Assembly: GCA_963823665.1 (NCBI GenBank)
Contig: CAWGMQ010000004.1
Location: 1,344,001 to 1,408,000 of the forward strand
DNA length: 64,000 bases
Origin: an uncultured Planctomycetota bacterium
Lineage (GTDB): Bacteria; Planctomycetota; Planctomycetia; Isosphaerales; Isosphaeraceae
Direction of reading: 5' to 3'
Shown piece by piece: positions 3,657 through 53,974 of this stretch. The notes under the pieces are model-generated. The model did no database searches, was not told where the DNA came from, and worked only from the letters and a program-made list of their open reading frames with translations. Numbering within the stretch: position 1 is the first letter of the stretch; every line of letters starts with the position of its first letter. Both the position numbers and the translations under genes were made by a program.

Positions 3657-4565
3657 TCAGACCGGTCCGCGGAACCGCTGCTTGCGATGCCAGCGGAGGT
3701 GGACAGGGTCGGGACTAAGCGCTGGATCGCTCGGTAATCGAATCATCTGCCCATGATAATCGGACAGCCGCTTCTGGTCCGGACTATCTTCCGTAAAGTG
3801 ACCGAGCGCAACTCGTACGGTGTAGTTATCCGCGATCGTCCAGAGCCCGTTGTCAAACAGCCAATGGGCATTCTTGCAGAGCGCGAGCCCGTTCCGGATT
3901 TCGTTGTTTCGCGAGTCCGCGAACTGATGAATGTGCGCGGCGTCGATGATGCTACTGGCCGATACCGTCATCAGGCGGTAGCCGGTCAGCGCGCACGTGT
4001 AGTTGTACAGCGAAACCACGCGGAGCCGAAACCTGCCTTCCCGACCGCGAAGCTCGGCCTCCTCGGCGAATTGTGACGCCGACGAATTTGCGACGTCCTC
4101 TTCGGTGAGAACCGGCAACCCGAGCAGCGCGCACAGGCCCACGCGCTCCGGCGGCGTGAAATAGCCCGAGATCAGGATCTTGCGAGCCACCTCACGAAAA
4201 GACGAGTCCTTGAGGCTGGCCTCAAACTCCGGGTCAAGCTCCGCGAATTTCGCCGCATGCCGGTCTGTTGTCGGACTGCCGGTTCCATCAAGCGCCTTCC
4301 AGAAACCGTCGCTCTGAATGTGGAAAAATGGGAAGCGGATCTCGGGCTTCTGCGTGCGGCGATGGGCGACCACCCGCCAATATGTGCAGAACTGAAATGC
4401 CAGCTCCGGAGTGAGTGGCAACAACTTCTCCGGCAGAACACCCTGTTCAGCCAAGTCGATAACGACTAGCAGCAGAAGAGGCTTGTGCGGCGCAGGGTTG
4501 CCCCTCCGGTCGGTTCGAAGTTTCGCCAGCTTGGCCAGCCACTTTCGTTCAGGGTTGTCCGACAT
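3657..4565 (-). CDS. SBD-HNH endonuclease (phosphorothioate-dependent type IV restriction enzyme-like)
   Basis: N-terminal APHKPLLLL and PFFHIQSDGFW sulfur-binding-domain motifs; C-terminal CALTG..DAAHI..NGLALCKNAHWLFD HNH. Confidence 0.8.
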   Translation of the reverse strand: MSDNPERKWLAKLAKLRTDRRGNPAPHKPLLLLVVIDLAEQGVLPEKLLPLTPELAFQFCTYWRVVAHRRTQKPEIRFPFFHIQSDGFWKALDGTGSPTTDRHAAKFAELDPEFEASLKDSSFREVARKILISGYFTPPERVGLCALLGLPVLTEEDVANSSASQFAEEAELRGREGRFRLRVVSLYNYTCALTGYRLMTVSASSIIDAAHIHQFADSRNNEIRNGLALCKNAHWLFDNGLWTIADNYTVRVALGHFTEDSPDQKRLSDYHGQMIRLPSDPALSPDPVHLRWHRKQRFRGPV

Positions 4566-7814: not shown

Positions 7815-7961
7815 GAACGTTGCGCGGGCAGGCATCGCGCGGCCCGCAGTGGAGATCTCTCCGCCCCGCGTCGCGCGATGAATCACACCCCCCCGGCCGA
7901 GTTCTCGGTTTCGTGTGAAGCCGACAGCGGCCTGCTCAGCCTTCCGGAGGTGGCGATCATG

Positions 7962-8029
7962 AGCGCCAGCCAGTCCTCGACTCGCAAGCCTGGCAGTTCT
8001 CGGGCGCCCCGGCGGCCAACCCTCTCCGC
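7962..8029. repeat. 68-bp direct repeat, copy A (left flank of RiPP locus)
   Basis: 57/68 identical, ungapped, to 11321-11388. Confidence 0.85.
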
Positions 8030-8247: not shown

Positions 8248-10146
8248 TCACCAATTTGGGTTCGAGGGGATCGCCAGGCTGAGATACTTGCCCTCTTCAC
8301 TCAGCATCAGCCGCGCACGACAGAATCCGTCCATTGCATCACGCACTTCCTCGGCAGAGTATTCATACTCCTCCGGCGCGCTCCGCAGTAGTCTCACGAC
8401 CTGTTCGACAGTATGCATCGTTTCAACGCATAACTCATATATTAACGCCAGTGGTCCTGAGAGGCTGTATGTGCCCCGTCGCTCCTGCCCCCAGGAGTAA
8501 TCAATCCAGAGGCAGTCGGGGGTGCGCCGATATGTCAAAGTATGTCGTTCGTCCGAAGTCCAGAGCCGTTGCCATTCAGAGATCCAGTCTTGGGTCTTTC
8601 GATGTACGTCCTCAGGGACCGTCTCGCCCATCTCGTAATCAAAGAAGTAAGCCGCTTTATCGAGATTGACGTGAGATGGATAGACGAAACGGTAGCTCGC
8701 TTCAGGCCGGACATCCCGAACCGGAAACGAGTCTCGATCAAAAAAATACGGCGAGAAACGTTCAAGCCAGATTCGGCCGGCGCCGACGGGCGGCTCGAGA
8801 TGGCGGATGCACTCGAGTACTTCAAATTGTTTCTCGTAATCCTCTCGCGTCTCACCCGGAAAGCCCCGAAGCAAATTCCAGGATGCATTGATGTTATAAT
8901 AGCGACACCATTTCAGACAACGCACGTTCTGGAGCATGGTGCAGCCCTTCCTCATCAGTGAGAGGACATGCGTGCTCATACTTTCTATTCCGGGCTGAAT
9001 GCGGCGAACGCCACCCCTGTACAGAGCCTGAATCTGGGCTTTCGTCAGATTGGCTTTGACCTCGTAGAAGAAGCGGAAGTCGGTCTTGGCAGTCTCGATT
9101 TTTGAGAAAAAATTGGTAACATATTTTACATCCACAATGTTGTCAACGGCTTCAAACGAGCTGATACGATATCTGCGCGTCTGCTCGGAGAGCTCCTCCA
9201 GCACCTTTCCAGGCGACTTTGCGCGAAAAGTCATCCCCAGACCGTTCAGGCCGCAAAAAGTGCAGTGATGTTTCTGGCCCCACCAGCAGCCGCGTGAGCT
9301 CTCGAAAGGGAGGATCCATTGCCTGCTGTACTCCCGCTCCAGGCCGAGTTGAGTCACGCGATGAAAATAGGCGTCGTAGTTGGGCGCGGGCGAGCCCTCC
9401 AGAGTGGCGACCGGGGCGGCCTGGTGCTCGAATATGAGCCCCTCGGGTGCACGTGCTACCAGGCCGGATAACGAGCCGGAAAACCCACCTGCGGATAAGG
9501 CACCCAACAATGCCGGGAATACCAGGTCTCCTTCCCCGACGACAACATAATCGATGAACGGAAAAGCTCGCGCGTACTCGGGGCCCATCTCTCCTTCCAT
9601 ATTAGCGCCGCCGAAAACGATGGTGACGCTCGGGTGTGACATCTTGATGAGCCGCGCAAGCGCCAGGCATGCCACGTTCTGCTGGAATGTGGAGCTGAAT
9701 CCCACAACTCGATAGCGGCTCCACTCGACCGCCCGGAAGCAGTCCTCGACGAACCGAGGTAAAACCTCCCGGCGCAAATCAATCAAATAGGCAGGATCGC
9801 GACCAATATCGCGGGACCATTGGGCCTCACCAGGGAATGCTTGAAAGTAACCGCCATCGTCTGACAGCTCCGGATCGCCGAACGCTGCGCGGGCGAATAA
9901 CCACTCCCCTGTCATCGGTCCTCGTTGATCAGACAACTTCTCGTACAGGTCTGGCCCGAGCAGGGCCGCAAGCTCCAGGTTGAAATAATGGGTATCGGTG
10001 GGAAACCCCGCGTTTAGAGCGATCGCATGCATCAGGCCTACTTGAATCGATGGCCTGTTTGCCTTGGCAAAGGGCATACAGATAAGCGCGACACGAAAAT
10101 CGGCCGTCGCCGGATCCGGCTCGTATACCTCGCTACGCTCGTGCAT
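8248..10146 (-). CDS. RiPP maturation cobalamin-dependent radical SAM C-methyltransferase (TIGR03975-like)
   Basis: B12-binding region (GFSSTFQQ, IVFGGAN, VGEGD), ESSRGCWWGQKHHCTFCGLN (Cx7Cx2C), FYEVKANL, IQPGIES, ERFSPYF; probable start MHERSE at 10146. Confidence 0.92.
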   Translation of the reverse strand: MHERSEVYEPDPATADFRVALICMPFAKANRPSIQVGLMHAIALNAGFPTDTHYFNLELAALLGPDLYEKLSDQRGPMTGEWLFARAAFGDPELSDDGGYFQAFPGEAQWSRDIGRDPAYLIDLRREVLPRFVEDCFRAVEWSRYRVVGFSSTFQQNVACLALARLIKMSHPSVTIVFGGANMEGEMGPEYARAFPFIDYVVVGEGDLVFPALLGALSAGGFSGSLSGLVARAPEGLIFEHQAAPVATLEGSPAPNYDAYFHRVTQLGLEREYSRQWILPFESSRGCWWGQKHHCTFCGLNGLGMTFRAKSPGKVLEELSEQTRRYRISSFEAVDNIVDVKYVTNFFSKIETAKTDFRFFYEVKANLTKAQIQALYRGGVRRIQPGIESMSTHVLSLMRKGCTMLQNVRCLKWCRYYNINASWNLLRGFPGETREDYEKQFEVLECIRHLEPPVGAGRIWLERFSPYFFDRDSFPVRDVRPEASYRFVYPSHVNLDKAAYFFDYEMGETVPEDVHRKTQDWISEWQRLWTSDERHTLTYRRTPDCLWIDYSWGQERRGTYSLSGPLALIYELCVETMHTVEQVVRLLRSAPEEYEYSAEEVRDAMDGFCRARLMLSEEGKYLSLAIPSNPNW

Positions 10147-10228
10147 GACTGGTTCCGCCTGGAATACGAATCCCGATTGAAGAGAAGGGCTCCGCGCGGT
10201 TTCAACGGGTAGAACAGGAGCGAACGAT

Positions 10229-10284
10229 GATTTTCCCCAGTCGACACGTTTCTTCCGAAACCCGAAGAAACCCCGGGGAAAATC
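10229..10284 (-). promoter_or_regulatory. Stem-loop between precursor genes and radical SAM gene
   Basis: GATTTTCCCC (10229-38) pairs with GGGGAAAATC (10275-84); inner GTTTCTTC (10248-55) pairs with GAAGAAAC (10264-71). Confidence 0.55.
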
Positions 10285-10315
10285 GCACGACTTCGGCGAA
10301 ACAACAACACGGGAA

Positions 10316-10525
10316 TTACTGGGGTTTGCCAATATGTACCGTTCCCGTTCCCGATACTGTGCCGCCGGAGATTTTCCTCAGCTCGTCATCGGAAAGACCA
10401 CGCGTGTCACTCTCTTTTTCCAGTTCCTTCTCGAGCGTCTCCTTCAGAGTCTCATGGGTTTTCTTCCCCGTCGGGGGAGACACCGGATTTGCACCGGCCG
10501 TGTCATCGATCGGTTGGTCAGCCAT
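10316..10525 (-). CDS. RiPP precursor peptide A1 (69 aa; leader ends LSDDELRKISGG; core TVSGTGTVHIGKPQ)
   Basis: AGGAGA RBS, double-glycine leader motif, directly upstream of the rSAM gene. Confidence 0.85.
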   Translation of the reverse strand: MADQPIDDTAGANPVSPPTGKKTHETLKETLEKELEKESDTRGLSDDELRKISGGTVSGTGTVHIGKPQ

Positions 10526-10742
10526 GTTCGTCTCTCCTGCTCTTTCGTCAAATGTCTCGATGAGCTCCGGTCGAATGGACCGGGCCAGCTCGTCGCAAAC
10601 GACCACGAACCGTCTTCAAGCCGCCGATTCAAACCAAGATTTGCCTCCCCGAGATGACCGGAAGTTCACGGGACACGAAGCTCGAAACCCGAGAAAACCC
10701 CGGGGAAAATCGCACGACTTCGGCGCAACGACAACACGGGAA

Positions 10743-10943
10743 TTACTGGCGAATTGCTGAGTTGGAAGGATGTGCTGTCCCAGCGGAGATTTTCCTCAGC
10801 TCCTCATCGGAAAGACCACGCGTGTCACTCTCTTTTTCCAGTTCCTTCTCGAGCGTCTCCTTCAGAGACTCATTGGTTTTCTTCCCCGTCGCGGGAGACA
10901 CCGGATTTGCACCGGCCGTGTCATCGATCGGTTGGTCAGCCAT
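10743..10943 (-). CDS. RiPP precursor peptide A2 (66 aa; leader ends LSDEELRKISAG; core TAHPSNSAIRQ)
   Basis: AGGAGA RBS; leader 50/55 identical to A1. Confidence 0.85.
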   Translation of the reverse strand: MADQPIDDTAGANPVSPATGKKTNESLKETLEKELEKESDTRGLSDEELRKISAGTAHPSNSAIRQ

Positions 10944-11320
10944 GTTCATCTCTCCTGCTCTTTCGTCAAATGTCTCGATGAGCGCCGGTCGAATGGACCG
11001 GGCCAGCTCGTCGCAAACGACCACGAACCGTCTTCAAGCCGCCGATTCAAACCAAGATTTGCCTCCCCGAGATGACCGGAAGTTCACGGGACACGACGCT
11101 TGACTCGACCGCGTTCGAAGTCTGAGCGGACCCCGAAAACCGGTCACCGAAACCGCCATGACCCAGATCGGCCCCGAGCGAATCGCGAGAGACCCCGATT
11201 GTCCTACAGTTCTTGTTACCGAAACTTCTCCCGAAATCTGACTCGGTCGCTGGAAAATTTCTCTGGGGAACGGAAGACTGAGCGTAAACCAGCTCTTTGA
11301 TAGGGTCGGGCGCGCCATCA

Positions 11321-11388
11321 AGCGCCAGCCAGTTCTCGACTTGCAAGCCTGGTACTTATCGGGCGCACGCACGGCCGGCCCTCTCCGC
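11321..11388. repeat. 68-bp direct repeat, copy B (right flank of RiPP locus)
   Basis: 57/68 identical to 7962-8029. Confidence 0.85.
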
Positions 11389-11764: not shown

Positions 11765-12679
11765 ATGATCAGCAGCAGTTACAACCTGACCCATCTGAAA
11801 TTCCTCGAGGCTGAGAGCATCCACATCATCCGCGAGGTAGCCGCCGAGTTCGAGCGGCCGGTGATGCTCTACTCAATCGGCAAGGACTCCGCCGTCATGC
11901 TGCGGCTGGCGCAGAAGGCGTTCCACCCCGGACGGCTGCCCTTCCCGCTGCTGCACGTCGATACGACCTGGAAGTTCCGGGCGATGATCGAGTTCCGCGA
12001 TCGGTTCTGTCGCGAACAGGGCCTCGACTTGAAAGTCTGGATCAACCCGGAGGGCCGGGCCCAGAACATCAACCCGTTCGACCACGGCTCGAAAAAGCAC
12101 ACCGACATCATGAAGACGGCGGCGCTGAAGCAAGCGCTCAACCACTACCAGTTCGACGCGGCGTTCGGCGGTGCCCGTCGCGACGAGGAGAAGAGCCGGG
12201 CCAAGGAGCGCGTCTACAGCTTCCGCGACCGCCTGCACCAGTGGGACCCGAAGAACCAGCGGCCGGAGCTCTGGAATCTGTACAACAGCAAGGTGAACAA
12301 GGGCGAGAGCATCCGCGCCTTCCCGCTGAGCAACTGGACCGAGCTGGACGTCTGGCAATACGTCCACCTGGAGAACATCCCCATCGTGCCGCTCTACTTC
12401 GCTGACGTCCGCCCGGTCGTCGAGCGCGACGGCACGCTCATCATGGTGGACGACGAGCGGATGCCATTGCTGCCCGGCGAGGAGCCGATGATGAAGCGGG
12501 TGCGGTTCCGCACGCTGGGCTGCTATCCGCTCACGGGGGCGATCGAGAGCAACGCGACGACGCTGCCGGAGATCATCGAGGAGATGCTGCTGGCGAGGAA
12601 CTCCGAGCGGCAGGGCCGGGTGATCGACCACGATGAGACGGGGTCGATGGAGCAGAAGAAGCGCGAGGGGTACTTCTGA
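11765..12679 (+). CDS. cysD: Sulfate adenylyltransferase subunit 2
   Basis: [48 protein letters not shown]. Confidence 0.97.
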
Positions 12680-12680
12680 A

Positions 12681-14617
12681 ATGCAAGCTGTTGACCTGAG
12701 TCAGGAAGACATCCACACTTACCTCGCCCGCCACCAGAAGAAGGAGCTCCTGCGCTTCCTCACCTGCGGCAGCGTCGACGACGGCAAGAGCACGCTCATC
12801 GGCCGGCTGCTGCACGACACCAAGATGATCTACGAGGACCAGCTCGCCGCCGTGAAACGCGACAGTGAAAAGGTCGGCACCACCGGCGCCGGCGAGATCG
12901 ACCTCGCCCTGCTGACCGACGGCCTGAAGGCCGAGCGCGAGCAGGGAATCACCATCGACGTCGCGTATCGCTACTTCTCGACCGACCGCCGCAAATTCAT
13001 CATCGCCGACACGCCGGGCCACGAGCAGTACACGCGCAACATGGCCACCGGCGCCTCGACTGCTCAACTGGCCATCATCCTGATCGACGCCCGCCACGGC
13101 GTCATGACCCAGACCCGCCGGCACTCGTTCATCGTGTCGCTGCTGGGCATCCGGCACGTGGTCGTCGCCATCAACAAGATGGACTTGGTCGACTACTCTC
13201 GCGACGTCTTCGAGCGCATCAAGGACGACTACACCGGCTTCGTCGCCAAGCTCGAGCTGCGCGACATCACCTTCATCCCGATGTCGGCGCTCAAGGGCGA
13301 CAACGTCGCGTCCAAGAGCGACGCAATACCGTGGTATTCCGGCCCGCCGCTGCTGGATCACCTGGAGACGGTGCACATCGCCAGCGACCGCAACCTGACC
13401 GACTTGCGTTTCCCGGTGCAGTACGTCATCCGCCCCAATCTCGACTTCCGCGGCTTCGCCGGCACGGTTGCGTCCGGCGTCCTGCGCAAGGGCGACGAGG
13501 TGATGGTGCTGCCGTCGGGCAAGCGCAGCCAGGGTGAAGTCGATCGTGACGTACGACGGCGAGCTGGAAGAAGCGTTCGCGGCACAGGCCGTGACCGTGA
13601 CGCTGACCGACGAGGTGGACGTCAGCCGCGGCGACATGCTGGTGCTGCCGGACAATCCGCCGCACGTCGAGCAGCGAGATCGAGGCGATGGTGGTGTGGA
13701 TGGCCGAGCAGCCGTTCGTGCCCGGCCGGCCGTATACGCTGAAGCAAACCACGCGACAGGTGACGGCGGAGGTCGCGTCATTCCGCTACGGCGTCGACGT
13801 CAACACCCTGGAGCACCGAGCCATCGCACGGCTGGGGCTGAACGAGGTCGGGCACGTGCAGCTTAGCCTGACGCAGCCGCTGGCGTGCGACCCGTACCGC
13901 ACCAACGCCGCGACCGGGGCGTTCATCCTGATCGACCGGCTGACGAACAACACGGTCGGAGCGGGGATGATCCTGGAGACCGGAAGCGGCCGGGCTCCGG
14001 GCGACGCCTGGGCGGCGCAGCCGGCGGAGCGTCTCAAGCCGCGCGAGAGCCTGATCGCGCCGGCCGAGCGCGAGCAGCGCTTCGGCCACGTGCCGATGAC
14101 GGTGCTTCTGGTGGGGCTGACGGGGAGCGGCAAGAGCCGGATCGCGTACGGGCTCGAGCGCCGCCTGTGGGACGAGGGCCGGGCAGTGACGGTGTTGTAC
14201 GGCCAGAGCATGCGACAGGGTCTGAACCGCGACCTGGGGTTCACCGCAGACGACCGCTCGGAGAACCTGCGGCGGTCGGCCGAGGTGGCGAAATTGATGA
14301 ACGACGCGGGGGTGATCACCATCGCGGCGTTCGTGGCACCACACGAGGCGGTGCGCGAGAAGGCGAAGCAGTTGATCGGCCGGGACCGCGTGCTTGAGGT
14401 GTACTGCACGGCGCCGATGGAGGTACTGCGGGCGCGCGACCAGAGCGGCGCGTACCGATTGGCTGACGCGGGCACGATCGCGCAGATGCCGGGCGTGACT
14501 GCGGCCTTCGAGGAGCCAAAAACGCCCGACCTCGTGCTGGAGACCGACCGGATCAGCGTCGACGAGAGCGTCAACCGCATCGTCGAGTTGATGAAGTCGA
14601 GGGGATATATACTCTAG
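12681..14617 (+). CDS. cysNC: Bifunctional sulfate adenylyltransferase subunit 1/APS kinase (frameshifts near 13530 and 13680)
   Basis: [20 protein letters not shown] GTPase motifs; C-terminal GLTGSGKS and [12 protein letters not shown]; split over three frames. Confidence 0.92.
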
Positions 14618-26035: not shown

Positions 26036-26235
26036 GGAGGCGGGTTGGCACCCGGGGCTGCCTTCCGCGCGCCTTCGCCTGATGCATTATCGCGAAGGCC
26101 CTGCCACTTGCACGCGAGGTCGAGTAGAGCGATCATCGGTTCGATGTGTCCGAAGACATGGAGCAACCACCTCCAAGACCCGCGGACCTCTGTCATCTCT
26201 CTTTTTTCCCTGACTCGTCGCCGTGGAGAGAACTT

Positions 26236-28752
26236 ATGCCCGGTCCGAAGACTTTGATCAGGTTTTTCCTTGGCATGCTTCTTGCCTCGATAGCCCCTGC
26301 ACCCATCGGCGCTCAAACGAACGCGCCGTCGCCGGCCCGTACCGATTCCTTGGGCTACAACTTGCCCCCAGACAATATCTTGTCGGTCATGCGCTCGCCC
26401 TCCCCGCCCGTCCCCCTCGTAAGCCCAACCGATGAGACCATTCTCCTCGTCACTTGGCAGGACTATCCCTCCATCGCTCGCGTGGCTACGCCTTTCCTGC
26501 GCCTGGCTGGTGTTCGTGTCGAGCCCAAGAATCACAGCAGGCACGATACTCGCGGCGGCTACGGCATCACTCCCTGTGCCACGGGCTTTGAACTGGTTCG
26601 AGTCGCCGATGGCAAGCAAACTCCCGTCCCGCTTCCCACCGGCATGTGCCCCGGGAATCCCGTCTGGGCCGCCGACGGGAAACACTTCGCCTTCGTCAAC
26701 ATTGCTTCCGATTCCGTCCAGCTCTGGATTGGCGACGCTAGTACCGGCAGCGTGAAACAGGTTGCCGGTGTTCATCTCAACCCCACGTTCAACGAAGAAA
26801 TGCAATGGATGCCCGATCAGAAAACGCTTCTCGTCAAGCTTGTGCCTGAGTCCAACCATGGCGCATCGCAAGAGGTGAATGAGCTCTCCAGTCCGAGTAT
26901 CCAGGAAACCAGCGCGCAAAAAGGCCAGAGCAGCACCTACGAAGCTCGCGACACCCTCCGCAGCGCGCGCGACGAAAACCTTTTCGATTTCTTCGCGCTC
27001 TCGCAACTCGCTTTCGTCGATTCCGCCACCCTCACCGTCACGCCCTTCGGTAAGCCCGCCAATTTTAAATCACTCGATCCCGCCCCGGACGGACACCACA
27101 TCCTCGTGACGACCATACACAAGCCTTACTCCTATCTCGTAACCTACGATCGCTTCCCCAGCGAAGTCGAAGTTTGGGACACCTCCGACCGCTTGAACGT
27201 CACCGTTGCCACCATCGCCTCGCTTCCGATGGCCGATCGCGTTCCCATTCGCGGCGTTCCCACAGGTCCACGCCAATTCTCCTGGCGCTCCACCGAGCCC
27301 GCGACACTGATCTGGGCCGAAGCCCTCGACGGCGGCGACTGGAAGGTCAGCGTCCCCAATCGCGACAAGATTCTCCTTCAGAAAGCGCCTTTCACTTCTC
27401 CGGCTGCTGAAGTCGTGCGCACCGAACAGCGTTACGCCGGCTTCAAGTGGAGCGAGCAGCCGAGCATTGCTCTACTGGGTGAACACGACGGGAACCGCCA
27501 TTGGACCCGCACCTTTATCGTGGATGTCGACAATCCCCAGGCGAAGCCCCGGCTGCTCTGGGATTTATCCGAGGATGAGCATTACAAGAACCCCGGCTAT
27601 CCGGTTTACCGCCAGCTCTCTAACGGTGCGCGGGTCATCCGCCAGGACGCCGATTCCATCTTCCTCTCGGGGAACGGCTCCTCGCCTGACGGTGATCGCC
27701 CTTTCCTCGATCAACTCGATCTCAAAACCCTGAAAACAGACCGTCTCTTCCGCAGCGATAAGAATTGCTTCGAGCGTTTCCTCTCCTTCAACGGACCCGG
27801 TGCAAAAACCTTCCTCACCTGGCATGAATCCCCAACCGATCCCCCCAACGCCTTCACGCGCACCCTCGGCCCGTCTCGCGATGCGTCCGACGGCGAAGCC
27901 GTCTTCACTTCCACGGCCGTCGCCTTGACCCGCCTCCCGGACCCCACCCCCGAAGTACGCGCCATCAAGAAGCGCCTCGTCACCTACAAGCGCGCCGACG
28001 GTTTGGACCTGTCCTTCACCCTTTACACTCCGCCCGGCTACCAGGAGGGCGCGCGGCTCCCCACCATTCTTTATGCCTATCCGCTCGATTACGCCCAGGC
28101 CTCGGTTGCCGGCCAGGTTGTCGGCTCCCAGAAAACCTTCACCCGCTTGCGCGCTTATCGCCTTCTCTTGCTCGCCGGTTATGCCATCATTGACAACGCT
28201 TCGTTCCCGATCATCGGCGATCCCAAGAAAGCCTACGACACCTACCTCGAACAACTCGTCGCCGATGCCAAGGCCGCTGTCGATGAAGGCGTGCGCCTCG
28301 GTGTGGTCGACCCTGACCGCATCGGTGTCACCGGTCACAGCCACGGCGCCTTGATGACCGTGAATCTCATCGCTCATTCCGATCTCTTCCGCGCAGGTGT
28401 CGCCACGAGCGGCTCATACAACAAAACGCTCACGTCCTTCGGTTTCCAGAACGAGCGTCGCACCGTTTGGGAAGCCACCGACGTGTACTTGAAAGTCTCC
28501 CCGTTCTTCTACGCCCACAAATTGAAGACGCCGATTCTCATCATGCACGGCACCGAGGACGCCAACCCCGGCACCACTCCGTTGCAATCCACGATGCTCT
28601 ACGAAGCCGTTCGCGGCAACGGCGGCACCGCCCGCTTGGTGATGCTCCCCCACGAGCCGCACCGGTATACCGCCATGGAGTCCAACGAGCAGGAGGTCTA
28701 CGAGATGCTCCGCTGGTTCGACACCTACGTAAAGAACGCGCCTTCGCGCTAA
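26236..28752 (+). CDS. S9-family prolyl oligopeptidase-like exported peptidase
   Basis: Signal peptide; GHSHG nucleophile elbow, HGTEDAN (Asp), LPHEPH (His). Confidence 0.9.
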   Translation: MPGPKTLIRFFLGMLLASIAPAPIGAQTNAPSPARTDSLGYNLPPDNILSVMRSPSPPVPLVSPTDETILLVTWQDYPSIARVATPFLRLAGVRVEPKNHSRHDTRGGYGITPCATGFELVRVADGKQTPVPLPTGMCPGNPVWAADGKHFAFVNIASDSVQLWIGDASTGSVKQVAGVHLNPTFNEEMQWMPDQKTLLVKLVPESNHGASQEVNELSSPSIQETSAQKGQSSTYEARDTLRSARDENLFDFFALSQLAFVDSATLTVTPFGKPANFKSLDPAPDGHHILVTTIHKPYSYLVTYDRFPSEVEVWDTSDRLNVTVATIASLPMADRVPIRGVPTGPRQFSWRSTEPATLIWAEALDGGDWKVSVPNRDKILLQKAPFTSPAAEVVRTEQRYAGFKWSEQPSIALLGEHDGNRHWTRTFIVDVDNPQAKPRLLWDLSEDEHYKNPGYPVYRQLSNGARVIRQDADSIFLSGNGSSPDGDRPFLDQLDLKTLKTDRLFRSDKNCFERFLSFNGPGAKTFLTWHESPTDPPNAFTRTLGPSRDASDGEAVFTSTAVALTRLPDPTPEVRAIKKRLVTYKRADGLDLSFTLYTPPGYQEGARLPTILYAYPLDYAQASVAGQVVGSQKTFTRLRAYRLLLLAGYAIIDNASFPIIGDPKKAYDTYLEQLVADAKAAVDEGVRLGVVDPDRIGVTGHSHGALMTVNLIAHSDLFRAGVATSGSYNKTLTSFGFQNERRTVWEATDVYLKVSPFFYAHKLKTPILIMHGTEDANPGTTPLQSTMLYEAVRGNGGTARLVMLPHEPHRYTAMESNEQEVYEMLRWFDTYVKNAPSR

Positions 28753-36808: not shown

Positions 36809-39575
<2,767 letters not shown>

Positions 39576-39576
<1 letters not shown>

Positions 39577-42500
39577 CAGAGTTCTCCAAGCAAGGGGGGG
39601 TCCTTCATGGGCGAGGCGGTGCCGGGCCCCGGCTCGCGGCTGTGGTCCGGGGCGTAGCTGTCTCTGTCGGGTCGCGGGTCAGACGGAGCAGGCTGCCCCA
39701 CCTGGAGGGGATCCACTTCGCCAGACTCACCCTCTCGGGCGAAGCCCGGCGGGTCGTAGTGCGAGCTTTCGGGGTCGTCCGGGTAAATCGATGGCGAGCG
39801 GGCCCCTCTCCGGCCAATCACGATCGCGAAGATCGAGGGGACGACGAGCAAGGTCGCAAATGTCGACATCACGAGCCCGCCGATAACTGCCAGCCCGAGC
39901 GGTGCCTGCATCTGGCTCCCCCGCTCGAGGGCCAGCGCCATCGGCACCATGCCAACCGTCATCGCGCAGGCCGTCATCAAGATTGCTCGCAAACGTTCGC
40001 GAGCTCCAGCGACGGCCGCCTCGGTTGCGGACGCGCCTCCCTTCCAGTGGTCGTTCATGAACGCCACGAGCATCACCGAGTTAGACACCGAGACGCCCAG
40101 GCTCATGATCGAGCCCATAAACGACTCGATATTGAGTCCGGTGTTGGTCACGTAGAGTATGGTCGCGATCCCCGCGAGTACTCCCGGTACGGCGCTGATC
40201 GAGATCAGCCCCAGGCGCGGCGACTGGAAATAGGCGGTCAAGAGTACGAGGATGACCAACACGGCGACCGCCAAGCCGATCCCGAGCGCCCGGAACATCT
40301 CGATCATTGGCGGGAGCTGGCCCAGAGGCTCGACACGCACACCTGTGGGCGGTTCCCCGGCGGCGCCGATCGCCTTCGCGACCTGGCGCGAGGCCCGGCC
40401 CATGTCCTCACCCTCGACGTTCGCTGTCAGGGTAAGGTAGCGCTGCGACATGTCACGGTCGTATTCGCCGGGGCGGACGCCCTGTCGGACCGTCGCCACG
40501 TCGCGGATCATCAGGTTCACCAGAGGATTCACCGATGCGATAGGCAACGACTCGACGTTTTCTGGCCTGATCATCTTTGTGGGCGGCATCAGCACTTCCA
40601 CGAGGTAGTCAAAGCCCGTATTCACGTCGATCCAGTAGTTGAGATCAGTAAAGCGTGTCGACGATGTCGCCATGACGAGTGCCTTGCGGACGTCGTCGAC
40701 TGTGACATCGCTCAACCCCGCCTTCTCGCGGTCGATGGCGACCTCGACGGTGGGGTAGTCGAGAGTCTGCTCGAACTGCACGTCGCGAAGGAAGGGGATC
40801 CGTTTCATCTCGCTGGCGATCTTTTCCGCGTGCTTCCGGACGTCATCCAGATCGGTGCCGACGAGTTGAACCGCAATCGGCGTGGATGAGCCGAAGCTCA
40901 TGACCTGAGTCACGATATCGCCCGGCGCGAAGCCGAAGGTCGACTTCTTGGCTTGCTCCAGCGCCTTCGCCCTGGGCAATCCGCCCTGCTCCAGTCGAGC
41001 GGCGAGCCACGGAATCACCCGCTCGGGCAGTACCTTGCGGAGTTGCTCGCGAAACTCGGCGAGCTTGATCCCGCTGTCCTCTTCAAGCGCGACGCGCAGC
41101 TGGCCATCGTCAGGCCCGCGCATGAAGAGCACCATGTTGTCGATGCCAAAGTTCGGGGCGACCTGGCCGACGAAGCCCAATGTGATCGCGATGTTCTCGG
41201 GCTTTGCCTCGCGCTCGATCTCCTCGAGGCACTTCACTGCCATCTGTCGGGTCAACTCAAAGTTCGAGCCAGGCGGCGGCCGGAACCGGAGGACGAACTC
41301 GCCCGAATCCACCTGCGGGAACAACTCGGTGCCGACCTGCGACCCGAGCAACCAGAGGGTCAGTGCGCACGCCACGAGATATCCCGGAACCACCCACCAG
41401 CGCAGGCGCACAAACCGGTTTACGGCCTCGCCATAAGCCTTCGCCATCCGATCGAACAGGCCGCGATTCTCCGCGCCATGCCTCTTCTCCTTGAGCAGGT
41501 AGACGCACAAGATCGGTACGAACATGATCGAGAGCAGGTACGACGAGATCATGGCGAACCCGACCGCCAGGGTCAGCGGCATGAAGAGCGACCGGAGCGG
41601 GTCTTCCAAGATGAATGCCGGCACGAATACGGATAGGATGCACAAGAGCGCCAGCAGAATCGGGACGGCCGTGGCGTTGCTTGCGCAACACCGCCCTGGC
41701 GATTTTCGGCGTCGTCGCCATCTGCACGTGCAAGTTCTCGATCGTCACCGTCGACATATCGACGAGAATGCCGATCGACAGCGCCATGCCGCCCAGCGAC
41801 ATGATGTTAATCGTGTTGCCCGTGAGCCAGAGTCCGACGAAGGACCCCAGGAGCGCGAGCGGGATGTTGGCCACGACGACGATCACGCTCCTCCAGTCGC
41901 GGAGGAACAAGAGGATCATCAAGCCGGTCAAGCCCGCGCCAATCGCCCCCTCGGTGGCGACACTCTCGATCGCGGCCAACACGGTAGGTGACTCATCGAA
42001 CTCGAAGCTGATCTTAACCTTGTCCCTGTATTCTCTGGGGATGACGCTATGGAACAAACTCATCGACTTGCGGGTGTCCGCCACGACGGTCAACGTCGAT
42101 CCGGTGTCTTTCTTGATGATCGGCAGATAGACCGACTTCTTGCCGTTGACCAAAGCGTAGCCGTAAGTGACGTCGGTATCGTCCTGTATGGTTGCCACGT
42201 CGCGGATGTAGACGTTTCGCCCTAGTCTGAGCGGAATATCGCCCAAATGCTTGATGTCGACGACCGTCGCGTTGTTGGCGACAACCGGCATTGAGTCCTG
42301 GACATAGAGGTTGCCGTAAGGAATGATCGTGTTCCCCTTTGCCAGAGCATCGACGACCTGTTGCGGTGTCAGGTTGTAGTCGCGGAGCTTCTGGGGATCG
42401 ATGCGTATGACAATCGACCGCATGTTGGGACCGAACGGCGAGATGGCAACCGTGCCGGGGACGTACTTCTGCACCTGGGGACGGATGAGGTTCTGCGCCC

Positions 42501-42966
42501 AATCTCCCAGTTGGCCGAGCGAGGCTTCCGTGCTCTCCAGAACAAGGTAGCCAACCGGAACGCTGCCGGCGTCCATCCGCATGATCATCGGCGGCAATGT
42601 CCCCTTCGGCATCCACGACATCGCCCGGTCGGACATTGCCACGACCTGGGCCATCGCCTGCCCCATGTCGGTGCCGGGGAAAAACGAGAGCTCGCACAGG
42701 GCGACCTGCTGGATGTTCCGCGATTTGATGTCCCGGATGCCGTCGACGTACTGGAAATAGAGCTCGAGCTGGTTGACGATCAATCCCTCCATCTGGTCGG
42801 GACCCATGCCGATGTAGTCGAGAAAGACGTAGATCTTCGGCACGTTGAGCGAGGGGAAAATGTCCACTCGCATCTTGTTGTATGCCAGGGCGCCACCGCT
42901 GATCAGCGCCACGACCAGCATTAAAGTCGTTACTGGTCGCCGCATGGCGAAGATCGTTATGCCCAT
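39576..42966 (-). CDS. RND efflux permease, AcrB/CusA family (frameshift near 41680)
   Basis: RRPV, VDIFP, INIMSLGGMALSIGILVD, ERLRAILMT, APLGLAVIGGL. Confidence 0.9.
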
Positions 42967-43075
42967 GGGTCTCATCCTCTTCGTGGAACCGGGCCTAAAT
43001 TAACCTGCTGACCGCGACTAGTGACGCCTCTGCGTCTGGCGCGGTCTCTCCAGACAGTACGAGCTGATCTGGTCC

Positions 43076-49256: not shown

Positions 49257-50270
49257 TCAGGTCGTGGCCTCCGTCCCGGTGAAGTTGACCAGTGTCTTGA
49301 TGTAGTTGGCGCGCTCGAAGGCACCAGGGTCCGGAGCGTTGATCGCACTCAGACTCCCTTTCATCTGGGCGACGGAGGCGTATTCTTTTTCCACCATCCA
49401 GGCGCGGATGCCGTCGAGCAGGGTCCGGACATGGTTCGGGCCATGGTGGTAAAGAGCGGAGGCGATCATCGTCACGTCGGCGCCGGCCAGGAGGAGCTTG
49501 ATCGCATCAAGGGCCGTGTGAACGCCCGTCGTTGCCGCGAACGAGGTCTCAAAGTGGGGGCGGAGGATGGCGATCCACCGGAGCGGCAAGCGCAGTTCGC
49601 TGCTGGTGCTCAGGATCAGGTTCGGAGTCACGCGGAGCGTCTCCAGGTCGATATCCGGTTGGAGGAAGCGGTTGAACAGGACCAGGCCGTTCGCGCCGGC
49701 CCGGGTGAGCCGGAGCGTCATGTTGGGTAACGAGCTGAAGAAAGGCCCCAACTTGACGGCGATAGGGATCGTGACGACCTCGCGAACCGCCTCGACAAGA
49801 TCGACGTAGCGCGATTCGACGTCGTTGCCGGTCTGAAACGGGTCCGTGACGACGTGATAGATATTCAGTTCGAGGGCATCGGCACCGGCCTCCTGGATCA
49901 GCTTGCCGTAGCGAACCCACCCCCCCTTCGAAGTGCCGTTCAAGCTGCCGATCACCGGAATCGACAGCGACCGCTTGGCCTCCTCGATGTGGTGGAGATA
50001 GGCGTCCGGCCCGGTGTTGTAGTTGTCCAGCTCGGGGAAGTACGAAAGAGCCTCGGGGAAACTCTCCGCGCCGTGCTCGTAGAAGCGGTAGGTTGCCATC
50101 TCGTCATGCTCGATCTGCTCCTCGAACAATGAGGGCATCACCGCCGCGGCGGCGCCGGCGTCCTCGAACCTGCGCAACGTGTCCAGTTTCCCGGTCAGAG
50201 AGCAAGCCGAGATTACCAGCGGGTTCGCCAGCGTCAGACCAAGGTATCGGGTTGTCAGGTCAACGTTCAT
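49257..50270 (-). CDS. Dihydroorotate dehydrogenase-like flavoprotein
   Basis: LTTRYLGLTLANP, PSLFEEQI, ALELNIY, VLFNRF, FERANY; overlaps the nifJ stop. Confidence 0.85.
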   Translation of the reverse strand: MNVDLTTRYLGLTLANPLVISACSLTGKLDTLRRFEDAGAAAAVMPSLFEEQIEHDEMATYRFYEHGAESFPEALSYFPELDNYNTGPDAYLHHIEEAKRSLSIPVIGSLNGTSKGGWVRYGKLIQEAGADALELNIYHVVTDPFQTGNDVESRYVDLVEAVREVVTIPIAVKLGPFFSSLPNMTLRLTRAGANGLVLFNRFLQPDIDLETLRVTPNLILSTSSELRLPLRWIAILRPHFETSFAATTGVHTALDAIKLLLAGADVTMIASALYHHGPNHVRTLLDGIRAWMVEKEYASVAQMKGSLSAINAPDPGAFERANYIKTLVNFTGTEATT

Positions 50271-53200
50271 GATTGTACCTCTTCCATCCGGCCGGGAGCG
50301 GTGCGCTCGACGCCCGCCATCTGTTCGTAGAAATGCCAGCGCTCGTCGATGTCGCGCTGCGCCAAGCTCAGGAGTTGTTCGGCCCGTTCGGGATTGGACC
50401 GAGTCAGCATGGCGAAACGGGCCTCCTTCATGGCGAACTCCTTGAATGGAAGGTTCGGCTTGTGGCTGTCGAGGTGGAACGGATGGCTCCCCGCGCTGGC
50501 GAGACGCGGGTCGTAGTGGTAGAGGGGCCAGTAGCCGCTGGCCGCTGCCTCCTTCTGGTGGCTCATCGACGTGGACATCTCGATGCCATGTGCGATGCAG
50601 TGACTGTAAGCGATGATCAACGACGGTCCGGTGTAGGAATCGGCCTGCTGGAAGGCGTGGAGGGTCTGCAAGGGGTTGGCCCCCATCGCGATTTGGGCGA
50701 CGTAAACGTTGCCATAGTCCACGGCGATCATGCCGAGGTCTTTCTTGGCGATGGCTTTGCCCTGGGCGGCAAACTTGGCCACCGCGGCGCGCGGAGTGGC
50801 CTTGGACGCCTGGCCGCCTGTGTTCGAGTAAACCTCGGTGTCGAGCACCAGCACGTTCACGTTCCGCCCCGACGCAAGAACGTGGTCCAGCCCGCCGAAC
50901 CCAATGTCATACGCCCAGCCGTCGCCACCGACGATCCAGACGCTCCGCCGCACAAGCGTATCGACCACCGTCAGGAGTGCCTTAGCCTCGGCGTCCGCGA
51001 TGGTGGATAGCCGTTCCTTGAGCTGAGCCACGCGCCGGCGTTGTTCGCGGATCTCCTCCTCGGTCTCCTGATGCGCATCCAGGATCGAAGCGACCATGTC
51101 CTCGCCCAATTGGGGGGCCAGCTCTCCTAAAAGGTGGCGCGCAAGTTCCTCCTGCTGGTTGACGGCCAGGCGCATCCCCAGGCCGAATTCGGCATTGTCC
51201 TCGAACAGCGAGTTGGACCAGGCGGGCCCGCGGCCCCCCTCATTCTTTGCCCAGGGGGTGGTCGGGAGGTTGGCCCCATAGATCGAAGAGCACCCGGTGG
51301 CATTGGCGACGATCAAGCGATCGCCATAGAGCTGGGTCAGGAGCTTCAAATACGGCGTCTCGCCGCACCCGGCGCAGGCGCCCGAGAATTCGAACAGCGG
51401 CTGGAGCAACTGCGAGCCCTTGACCGTATCGGCCTTCACCTGCTTCCGGTCGATTTCCGGAATCTTCGTGAAGAACTGGAAGTTCGGCCTCTCGCGCCCG
51501 AGGTGATCCTCCGACTTGATCTCCATGTTGATCGCCTTGTGCCGTGCGACCTCCTTGCTGACGGCCGGACAAACGTCAACACAGACACCGCAGCCGGTGC
51601 AGTCGTCCGGGGCGACCTGGATCGTCATGAGGTGATCGGGAAGGTCCGTGCCGGTCCAGGGCCGCGAGCGAAAGCCTGGCGGCGCTCCGTCCAAGGCCGA
51701 AGGCGCGTAGACTTTGCTCCGGATCACGGCGTGCGGACAGACCATCGCACAGAGGCCGCACTCGATGCAGACATCCGGGTCCCAGATCGGGATCTGCTGG
51801 GCGATGCTGCGCTTCTCGAACCGGGAAGTGCCCGTCGGGAAAGTACCATCGGGCGGCAAGGCGCTGACGGGGAGCAGGTCGCCCTTGCCGGCTATGATCA
51901 GGGCCGTGACACGCTGGACGAAATCGGGCGCGTCGTCGGGCACGACCGGCAGCCGACGCCGGTCCCCGGCGACATACCTCGGGAATCGCGACCTCATGCA
52001 GCGACGCGAGGGCGTCGTCTACAGCAGCGAAGTTCCGGCGCAGCACCGCCTGGCCGCGCTTGCCGTACGCTTTTTCAATCGACTCCTTGATCTCGTTGAT
52101 CGCATGGTCGCCAGGCAAGAGGGTCGTCAGTGAGAAGAAGCATGTCTGCATCACCGTGTTGATTCGCGGCCCGAGCCCCGCCTCGCTGGCCACACGGTAG
52201 GCGTCCACCACGAAGAACCGCAGTCTCTTCTTGATGATCTGTTCCTGGACTTCGACCGGGAGCTTCTCCCAGACCTCCGCCGGCCCGAAGTGGCTATTGA
52301 GCAGGAACGTGGCGCTCGGCTCGGCGTGCTCCAGCACGTCGATCCGATCCAGGAAGCCGAACTGATGGCATGCCACGAAGTTGGCCCGGCTGATCAAATA
52401 CGGTGAATTAATCGGCTGCGAGCTGAAGCGAAGGTGCGAGACGGTGATCGAGCCCGACTTCTTCGAGTCGTAGACGAAGTATCCCTGCGCGTGCAGCGGG
52501 GTCTTCTCGCCGACGATCTTGACCGAGTGCTTGTTCGCGCCGACGGTGCCGTCGCTGCCGAGTCCGTAGAAGAGCGCACGAAGTCCGTCTTCGTGTTCGG
52601 TGCAAAAGTCTTCGTGCCCTTTGAGATTCAGACTCAGGTGCGTTACATCGTCGTTGATCCCCACCGTGAAGTGCAGCTTGGGGTCCGGTCGACCGAGCTC
52701 GTCGAAGACCGCCGCGGCCATGGCCGGTGTGAATTCTTTGGACGAGAGGCCGTACCGGCCTCCGATCACTCGCGGAATCGGTCCCGCTCCCTTGGCCCGA
52801 CTGCTCCAACTCTCGGCCAGGGCGGTCACGACGTCGAGATAAAGCGGCTCGCCCAGACTTCCCGGCTCCTTGGTGCGGTCCAGGGCCGCGATGATCCGGG
52901 TCGTTGGCGGCAGTGTTGCGATAAATGCATCGGCGGAGAACGGACGGTACAGCCGAACCTTGAGCAACCCCACCCTCTCGCCGCGGGCGACGAGAGTTCG
53001 GACTGCTTCCTCCGCCGCGCCGACGGCGGAGCCGAGAATCACGGCCACCCTCTCGGCGTCGGGCGAGCCCACATAGTCGAAGAGATGGTATTGCCGCCCG
53101 ATCCGACCGGCGAAACGATCCATGGTTTGCTGCACGACATTTGGCACCGCCTCGTAAAACATGTTCACCGCCTCGCGGGCTTGGAAGAACACGTCCGGGT

Positions 53201-53864
53201 TCTGTGCCGATCCGCGAAGTACGGGCCGATCCGGCGACAAGGCCCGATCGCGATGGGCTTGCACATGGTCGTCGTCCATCATCGCCCGCACATCGTCCGC
53301 GGTAAGCTGATCGATCTTGTTGATCTCGTGCGACGTCCGAAAGCCGTCGATGACGTGGAGAAAGGGTACGCGCGCCGCGAGGGTGGCGGCCTGCGCGATC
53401 AGAGCGAAGTCCTGTGCTTCCTGTACCGAGGTTGCAAAGAGCATCGCCCAGCCCGTCGAGCGCGTCGCCATCACGTCGCTATGGTCGCAGAAGATGGACA
53501 GGGCGTGCGTCGCCACCGACCGGGCGGCGATGTGGAAGACCGTGGACGTCAGCTCGCCGGCGATCTTGAACATGTTGGGTATCATTAGCAGCAGGCCCTG
53601 CGAGGCGGTGAACGTCGTCGTGAGCGCTCCGGCCTGCAGCGCCCCGTGCACGGCACCCGCCGCGCCCCCTTCGCTCTGCATCTCGATGACTTCGGGCACC
53701 GTGCCGAAAAGGTTCTTCTTACCCGCGGCAGACCAGGCGTCGGCCAGCTCTCCCATCGGCGAGGCCGGGGTGATCGGATAGATCGCGATCACTTCGTTTG
53801 TCAGGTGGGCGACGAAGGCAGCCGCCTCGTTGCCGTCGAGCGTGATCCAACGTGGTTGATGCAT
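50267..53864 (-). CDS. nifJ: Pyruvate:ferredoxin (flavodoxin) oxidoreductase (frameshift near 51975)
   Basis: IYPITPAS, MQSEGGAAG, GSDGTVGANK, two ferredoxin motifs, GACAGCGE, GGDGWAYDIG. Confidence 0.95.
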
Positions 53865-53974
53865 GATGCAGCCTCTCGATTCAAACGGGCCGGACTTGAC
53901 TGAGGTCGGAAGAGCCAACCAAGTCGTAGCCGTCTATTTCTCTTTCGGCCTCAGCGGCCCAGCTCTCCATCCGG

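Follow-up and report, generated by a model that had tools for sequence, protein, structure and literature searches.

A stretch of 64,000 nucleotides from an uncultured planctomycete of the family Isosphaeraceae (contig CAWGMQ010000004.1, the whole stretch being referred to here as the window) contains two small precursor genes and one gene for a radical S-adenosylmethionine (rSAM) enzyme that depends on B12. Does this locus represent a class of peptides made by the ribosome and modified after translation (RiPPs) that needs only one tailoring enzyme? An earlier reading, made from the letters of the window (the sequence-only reading), had proposed such a class, typical of planctomycetes, with short linear C-methylated products. 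The comparison with related loci suggests another answer. The locus is probably a deletion-derived remnant of a larger modular RiPP cluster, a natural knock-out, and not a new one-enzyme class.

The closest enzyme that was found (94%) is encoded at locus L014, the sequence of which is the same as in the congeneric genome G001. This congener locus occupies the same site as the window's cassette, flanked by cysD and an oxalate decarboxylase gene, has two precursor genes, and shares 89-95% DNA identity with the window. In the congener, precursor 2 is separated from the B12 gene by a radical SAM/SPASM gene. The alignment of the window with L014 runs to L014 position 6668 and resumes at 7961. The 1292 nt in between (L014:6669-7960), which contain the whole rSAM/SPASM gene, are absent from the window at a junction at 10186..10187 (no strand), and the start region of the B12 gene was spared. 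A 166-nt contig of the public run X1 (depth 5.8) joins both sides of this junction with the window's own letters. Over the intact locus the X1 contigs are short and patchy, and the parts that they leave uncovered are uninformative. A copy of the SPASM gene was not found elsewhere in the window's genome either, where the best score with the FxsB model was 35 bits, compared with 302 bits in G001 as the positive control. The SPASM gene has been cleanly deleted in the window's lineage, and the one-enzyme state of the window locus is due to this deletion.

The direction of the change can be read from the relatives of the remaining enzyme. The window's enzyme falls inside a clade of 10 rows (Shimodaira-Hasegawa approximate likelihood ratio test, SH-aLRT, 94) when 47 B12 enzymes are placed in a quick tree. 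Eight other loci belong to this clade, and SPASM is directly upstream in all seven that have sufficient upstream DNA; L105 is truncated, and L015 and L106 are near-identical. The SPASM proteins at six other loci of the clade are 57-67% identical to that of the congener. Another genus of the window's family (G1229), found later and outside the tree, also has SPASM, giving 8 of 8 scorable close loci. Loss is the simplest polarity because SPASM is present at all of them. The claim of a class with one tailoring enzyme does not hold, since the congener and every scorable close locus keep the gene that was deleted here.

The two precursor genes are on the reverse strand. Precursor 1 (10743..10943) encodes 66 aa with LSDEELRKISAG and the core TAHPSNSAIRQ, and precursor 2 (10316..10525) encodes 69 aa with the canonical double-glycine motif LSDDELRKISGG and the core TVSGTGTVHIGKPQ. 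Both carry the leader helix of the family that is described below. They translate as the sequence-only reading had it, with leaders of 55 aa that end in LSD(D/E)ELRKIS(A/G)G and with AGGAGA as a ribosome-binding site 7 nt 5' of each ATG. That reading did not include the deletion of a whole gene, nor the tandem duplication (10256..11074, no strand), whose unit of 418-427 nt spans both precursor genes. Flanking DNA included, the copies are nearly identical outside the core-coding part (300 nt at 97% and 67 nt at 94%). The identity of the two leaders is no sign of selection because the genes are tandem duplicates. Better evidence that they are coding comes from the core-coding stretches, which are strongly diverged in four DNA copies (two in the window, two in the congener) and keep the frame in all of them (36, 45, 36, and 42 nt), with flanks that are about 90% alike. 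A metagenome scan with precursor 1 gave 594 pattern matches, of which 0 were confirmed.

A leader profile made from 10 precursors was searched against 1.84 billion representatives. It recovered 39 clusters at 50% identity, without existing annotation, and scored precursor 1 at 1e-20. The members share the helix K-K-x-x-x-x-L-K-x-x-L-x-x-E-L-x-K-E, then T-x-G. The leader had been judged unlike NHLP and Nif11, and no such NCBIfam match at E<=1 and no Pfam match was obtained. Related B12 enzymes (62%) at L102, L103, and L104, outside the window's clade, are found beside short NHLP-like precursors ending ELSDAELEQATGG. Among the 156 B12 loci that were fetched, the expected leader homologs beside relatives of the enzyme were found at 10 of the 11 wider-clade loci with more than 2.5 kb of upstream DNA, and at none of 91 others. 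A copy of the leader helix also forms the N-terminus of a DUF483-like protein of 350-380 aa that is encoded 3' of the B12 gene at a number of loci (L015:9854-10957, L105:4138-5274, L106:7716-8819, L107:5288-6343, L111:3372-4469, and L216:9190-10239). At L105 (155-4016) a tandem pair of TIGR03975 genes is found ahead of it.

The tails that follow the leaders are rich in histidine. Before they were counted, the 39 matches were cleared of three long proteins, of 681-1694 aa, and of a frameshifted form of 184 aa; P0005 was grouped with the copies of the window's lineage, and P0040 with the HExxH type that is described below. Outside these two groups, His is present in 34 of 36 tails, where about 19 would be expected at the His frequency of the leaders. 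Most tails read [IVGT]-H-[GA]-[ST], with H-G-S as the commonest triad (13) and H-G-T as the next (4). In 20 matches, chosen to limit profile bias, the matched stretch ends before the core; [IVGT]H[GA] occurs in 14 of these tails, compared with a mean of 2.1 and a maximum of 8 in 10,000 shuffles. The His motifs accompany SPASM loci, and loci that lack SPASM lack them too. Precursor 2 of the congener retains S-G-H-V-K, and neither core of the window retains the family motif. Formally, the H-P-S of core 1 fits an aromatic-X-X motif whose +2 residue has a C-beta, and its His is not conserved in the copy of the congener or of P0006. The H-I-G of core 2 has no C-beta at +2 and does not fit.

The enzyme that remains is encoded at 8248..10146 on the reverse strand. 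The gene is intact, and its product of 632 aa combines a B12-binding domain with a radical SAM domain and a Cx7Cx2C motif, CWWGQKHHCTFC. It scores 633.8 bits with TIGR03975 (cut-off 281.85) over profile positions 1-606, and by sequence it is a member of this family of B12-dependent radical SAM C-methyltransferases. The earlier assignment to PoyC-type methyltransferases was borne out by this check. Its predicted model resembles the folds of TsrM, TokK, OxsB, and CysS, and a close solved structure was not found in the structure comparison. A predicted complex of the enzyme with precursor 2 scored 0.43, with 0.00 for the best of 3 controls, at a contact agreement of at least 43% and a partner predicted local distance difference test (pLDDT) value of at least 45; in the calibration, 18 of 157 solved complexes passed at or below 0.60, and of 215 mismatches 2 passed, both of them in this range. 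The prediction lends weak support to binding.

Whether the window holds a working reduced system or a dead remnant is about evenly balanced. Continued function is favored by the intact B12 gene, by its short terminal branch in the quick tree, by the in-frame replacement of the cores, weakly by the predicted complex with precursor 2, and by a ratio of nonsynonymous to synonymous substitution rates (dN/dS) against the congener of 0.17, which gives no date for the selection relative to the deletion (cysD, 0.13; oxdC was left out of the comparison). It is quite possible that the locus is dead. The first and defining step would then have been deleted, the B12 enzyme would need a cyclised substrate, no product would be made, and the cores would be drifting. 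The absence of the family motif from both cores, when the congener's precursor 2 keeps it, speaks for this. So do the loss of the SPASM partner and a leader dN/dS of merely 0.49 on 110 codons, which offer few sites. A DUF483-like partner had no match in the window's genome or in G001, in a search without a positive control. A dead locus is harder to reconcile with a B12 gene that is intact although the assembly has several split genes, with the sparing of its start region, and with four strongly diverged core stretches that are all in frame.

The function of the deleted enzyme can be proposed from its likeness to known enzymes. Each SPASM copy has its highest-scoring NCBIfam models among the cyclophane synthases. 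The congener's copy has FxsB (301-302 bits) and YhhB (277 bits) as its best models, and all copies (n=7) score 277-319 bits against cut-offs of 370 (FxsB, TIGR04269) and 445 (YhhB, NF041707), so that none reaches either. At E<=1e-120, this unassigned subfamily contains 768 protein clusters; Edaphobacter aggregans and Acidicapsa dinghuensis are among the named sources. Triceptide synthases join an aromatic ring to the C-beta two residues on, in the cases described there His to Ala, Lys, or Arg; HaaB acts on HAA, HtkB on HTK, and YhhB on HNR, and MscB/FxsB act on FxS (accessible parts of PMC11499958 and PMC11002830). The intact relatives resemble triceptide clusters in their rSAM/SPASM enzymes with FxsB and YhhB as best models, in their His-X-X precursors, and in some cases in an aKG-HExxH protein. 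They differ in SPASM scores below both cut-offs, in H-G-S as the commonest triad, and in the linked TIGR03975 methyltransferase and DUF483-like protein. By this analogy they may be said to work like triceptide clusters; the window itself is without the SPASM gene.

The fullest cluster is L216 of G1229, with a halogenase-like gene, aKG-HExxH, precursor, SPASM, B12 enzyme, and DUF483-like gene; its precursor has VHGSI in a shifted frame and no double-glycine motif. G820 (L195:5989-7801) is a mirror image of the window, with a precursor of the family and SPASM; a B12 gene was not found in the fetched 16 kb. In a sister clade (5 rows, SH-aLRT 99), an aKG-HExxH protein and an aldo-keto reductase accompany the enzyme in 4 rows. 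The sister cassette has the same family leader, a His-free tail ending ISSSVGQ(S/N)ISF, the aKG-HExxH protein, the TIGR03975 enzyme, and the aldo-keto reductase (L016, L017, L018, L027, and L160; hosts include Pseudonocardia, Duganella, and Sphingomonadales). A second pairing of a methylase with a cross-linker is seen at L023 and L026, where a TIGR03975 enzyme is directly followed by a DarW/DarE-like rSAM/SPASM gene (below cut-off).

It is unlikely that the SPASM partner is something other than a cyclophane synthase, such as an epimerase or another cross-linker, or that the B12 enzyme is not a C-beta methylase. The scores under both equivalog cut-offs would allow for this, as would the failure to find a close solved structure, and in the sister clade this leader and B12 enzyme go with His-free tails and other partners. 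On the other side are the best models of all SPASM copies, all cyclophane synthases, and the His motifs that track SPASM loci. In addition, PoyB/PoyC of polytheonamide biosynthesis and the bottromycin methyltransferases (accessible parts of PMC11285071 and PMC5682303) as well as MpcB, all Cx7Cx2C enzymes, are described as C-beta methylases.

The leader family together with its SPASM partners is, by analogy, a probable RiPP family with a His cyclophane and beta-methylation. Neither the leader family nor a triceptide paired with a TIGR03975 enzyme was found in the open-access literature searched, a scope that does not take in the 2022 survey of triceptides by Sugiyama et al., in which the SPASM subfamily may be listed. 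The accessible parts of PMC13469106, PMC12931638, PMC12912966, and 10.1101/2022.04.01.486688 do not describe the leader family.

The precursors of the window also possess a putative export signal. Double-glycine leaders are cut by peptidase-containing ATP-binding cassette (ABC) transporters of the C39 type, with cut sites named as GG, GA, or GS and the consensus L(-12)-x3-E(-8)-L(-7) (accessible part of PMC6363468). The spacing of Leu(-12), Glu(-8), Leu(-7), and Ile(-4) is exact in both precursors. The window differs in its unlinked transporter and in the Ala-Gly of precursor 1. The double-glycine leader claimed for both genes is canonical in precursor 2, which ends in Gly-Gly and scores 14.2 bits with TIGR01847 (cut-off 15.7), and less so in precursor 1. 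The motif occurs in 5 of 5 copies of the window-lineage type and in 0 of 36 other precursors of the family; as judged from these sequences, it is a lineage-specific addition. The C39 peptidase transporter that was expected elsewhere in the genome was found. Two NHLP-type C39 exporter genes (L180:7482-14314 and L181:9071-14419), in each of which ABC1 and ABC2 form a single reading frame, are on contig 3 of the window's genome (G000), which is not the contig of the cassette. Both score over the TIGR03796/TIGR03797 cut-offs, and one also matches TIGR03794. No NHLP or Nif11 precursor over the cut-off was found in the window's genome, and no double-glycine-like small open reading frame was found within the 20-kb stretches around the two exporters. 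G001 has one such exporter over the cut-off, G063 has one below it, and G062 and G820 have none. In this sample of five genomes, the distribution fits the grafting of an export signal in the window's genus.

Within the window, no C39 peptidase, epimerase, or YcaO was found among the 41 open reading frames (top 5 families each), as stated before. The wider statement that no peptidase or transporter is present went too far. An S9 peptidase is encoded at 26146-28752 and an RND efflux system at 38113-42975, both 15-30 kb away and apparently unlinked.

It is highly improbable that the locus belongs to an original, self-standing class of planctomycetes with one enzyme and linear C-methylated peptides, and this model is largely refuted. 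It has some points in its favor. Val, Ile, Thr, and Pro occur in the cores, and the genome has C39 exporters. The clavusporins (mpc) show that a RiPP that is linear and beta-methylated can be defined by a lone Cx7Cx2C B12 rSAM enzyme, MpcB, though this enzyme has the DUF5825 protein MpcC as its partner (10.1101/2024.01.23.576971). A linear peptide with one methylase therefore already has a precedent. With their short Cys-free core and single Cx7Cx2C enzyme, the clavusporins are the closest precedent for a product of the window alone; beta-methylation of Val, Ile, Thr, and Pro and leader dependence are known from the clavusporin side and are predicted by analogy for the window. The actinobacterial mpc cluster has its own S9 peptidase, an MFS transporter, the required DUF5825 partner, and Arg cleavage sites, and the window cassette is without these and has another leader with a double-glycine motif. 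The mpc layout, with MFS and S9 peptidase genes upstream and DUF5825 downstream of the B12 gene, is not seen in the window, where cysD and the oxalate decarboxylase gene form the flanks. A search for DUF5825 matched 0 of 5 genomes, and no control gave a signal either. Proteusin clusters share with the window the Cx7Cx2C motif and B12 domain of PoyB/PoyC and NHLP-type exporters acting in trans. The window differs in its leader, which is neither NHLP nor Nif11, in the lack of an epimerase, and in cores of 11-14 aa compared with about 49. The window locus is not a proteusin cluster, is not of the mpc type, and is not itself a triceptide cluster.

The distribution of the family and the composition of the cassette also speak against such a class, besides the presence of SPASM at all scorable close loci. 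The family is patchily distributed. In a sample of 401 genomes of Planctomycetota, the window's own was the sole match, and the window's B12 clade is present in 3 of 121 genomes of its family. In the class of G062, 3 of 401 genomes matched, one of which (G845, unpublished) was counted only. Members of the leader family are found in Acidobacteriota, Pseudomonadota, and Actinomycetota, and the label of a planctomycete class had to be given up. The cassette has a guanine-plus-cytosine content of 55-57%, compared with 61-69% in the adjoining genes, which fits acquisition from outside.

An imperfect direct repeat of 68 nt (84%) is present on the forward strand in both flanks of the cassette, downstream at 7962..8029 and upstream at 11321..11388; none was found at the corresponding places in the congener. 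A scan for promoters and terminators placed nothing at the operon ends, with counts near chance. The stretches 906-2992 and 3657-4565 encode an IS91-family transposase together with a tyrosine recombinase, and an HNH nuclease that resembles phosphorothioate-DNA restriction enzymes, with a score below the cut-off. Three genes are each broken into two frames, probably by sequencing indels: cysN/C (12633-14617), an RND permease gene (39576-42975), and the gene for pyruvate:ferredoxin oxidoreductase (50267-53918); cysN/C is unsplit in the congener. Such splits could suggest that the missing SPASM gene is an assembly artefact as well, which is scarcely credible, as a separately assembled contig has the same joint in the window's own letters.

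Several points weigh against the reading of the locus as a remnant of a cyclophane cluster. The junction rests on the one X1 contig, and that run may be from the window's own sample, though it is a separate assembly. The window's genome is 91.9% complete. The congener's SPASM gene has a 1-nt shift near its end, due to a sequencing error or to decay. Lone B12 copies do occur, as at L019 of the sister clade, where no precursor or partner was found within 8 kb of the gene. The pattern of the His motif was picked after the sequences had been viewed, and 33 of the precursors are database entries that were counted without gene context. The cyclophane reaction is assigned by likeness only, because the SPASM scores are below the FxsB and YhhB cut-offs.

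Taken as a remnant, the locus can be given a probable history. The usual cluster would possess a short precursor, then an FxsB/YhhB-like radical SAM/SPASM enzyme, then a TIGR03975 B12 radical SAM enzyme. A DUF483-like protein would often be added to these, and an aKG-HExxH hydroxylase sometimes. The SPASM enzyme would link His to the C-beta of the residue at +2, forming a three-residue cyclophane. In the B12 enzyme, a 5'-deoxyadenosyl radical would take a hydrogen from the C-beta of Val, Ile, Thr, or Pro, and methylcobalamin would give the methyl group. Intact loci would produce His cyclophanes with beta-methyl groups on flanking Val, Ile, or Thr. In the window's planctomycete genus, the precursor would have gained the double-glycine export motif and been duplicated, and the clean deletion of SPASM would have followed later in the window's lineage. 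The window could then at most make linear methylated peptides, possibly beta-methylated and cut and exported in trans by an NHLP-type C39 transporter.

A bolder version, which is rather doubtful, takes the leader as the mark of an undescribed, widespread, and modular RiPP family of soil bacteria, with products that would unite His-to-Ser/Thr cyclophanes and B12-dependent beta-methylation, and the window as a living offshoot that makes new linear methylated peptides. The interchangeable modules would be SPASM only, SPASM with B12, HExxH with B12 and reductase, and the full set combined with the leader-bearing DUF483-like protein. In the offshoot, an export signal would have been grafted, the precursor duplicated, the cyclase deleted, and the cores replaced. 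If true, a switch of RiPP class would here be observed while it is under way.

A cluster of two precursors and one enzyme that could be mistaken for a new minimal class is thus a deletion derivative, and the parent family appears to be a more valuable lead than the window locus. It pairs a subfamily that is like cyclophane synthases with a PoyC-type methyltransferase. Substrates that are small and soluble also become available for a B12 enzyme family without a close solved structure. With natural loci that have SPASM only, B12 only, or both, it can be tested directly in which order the two radical steps occur and whether they are independent.

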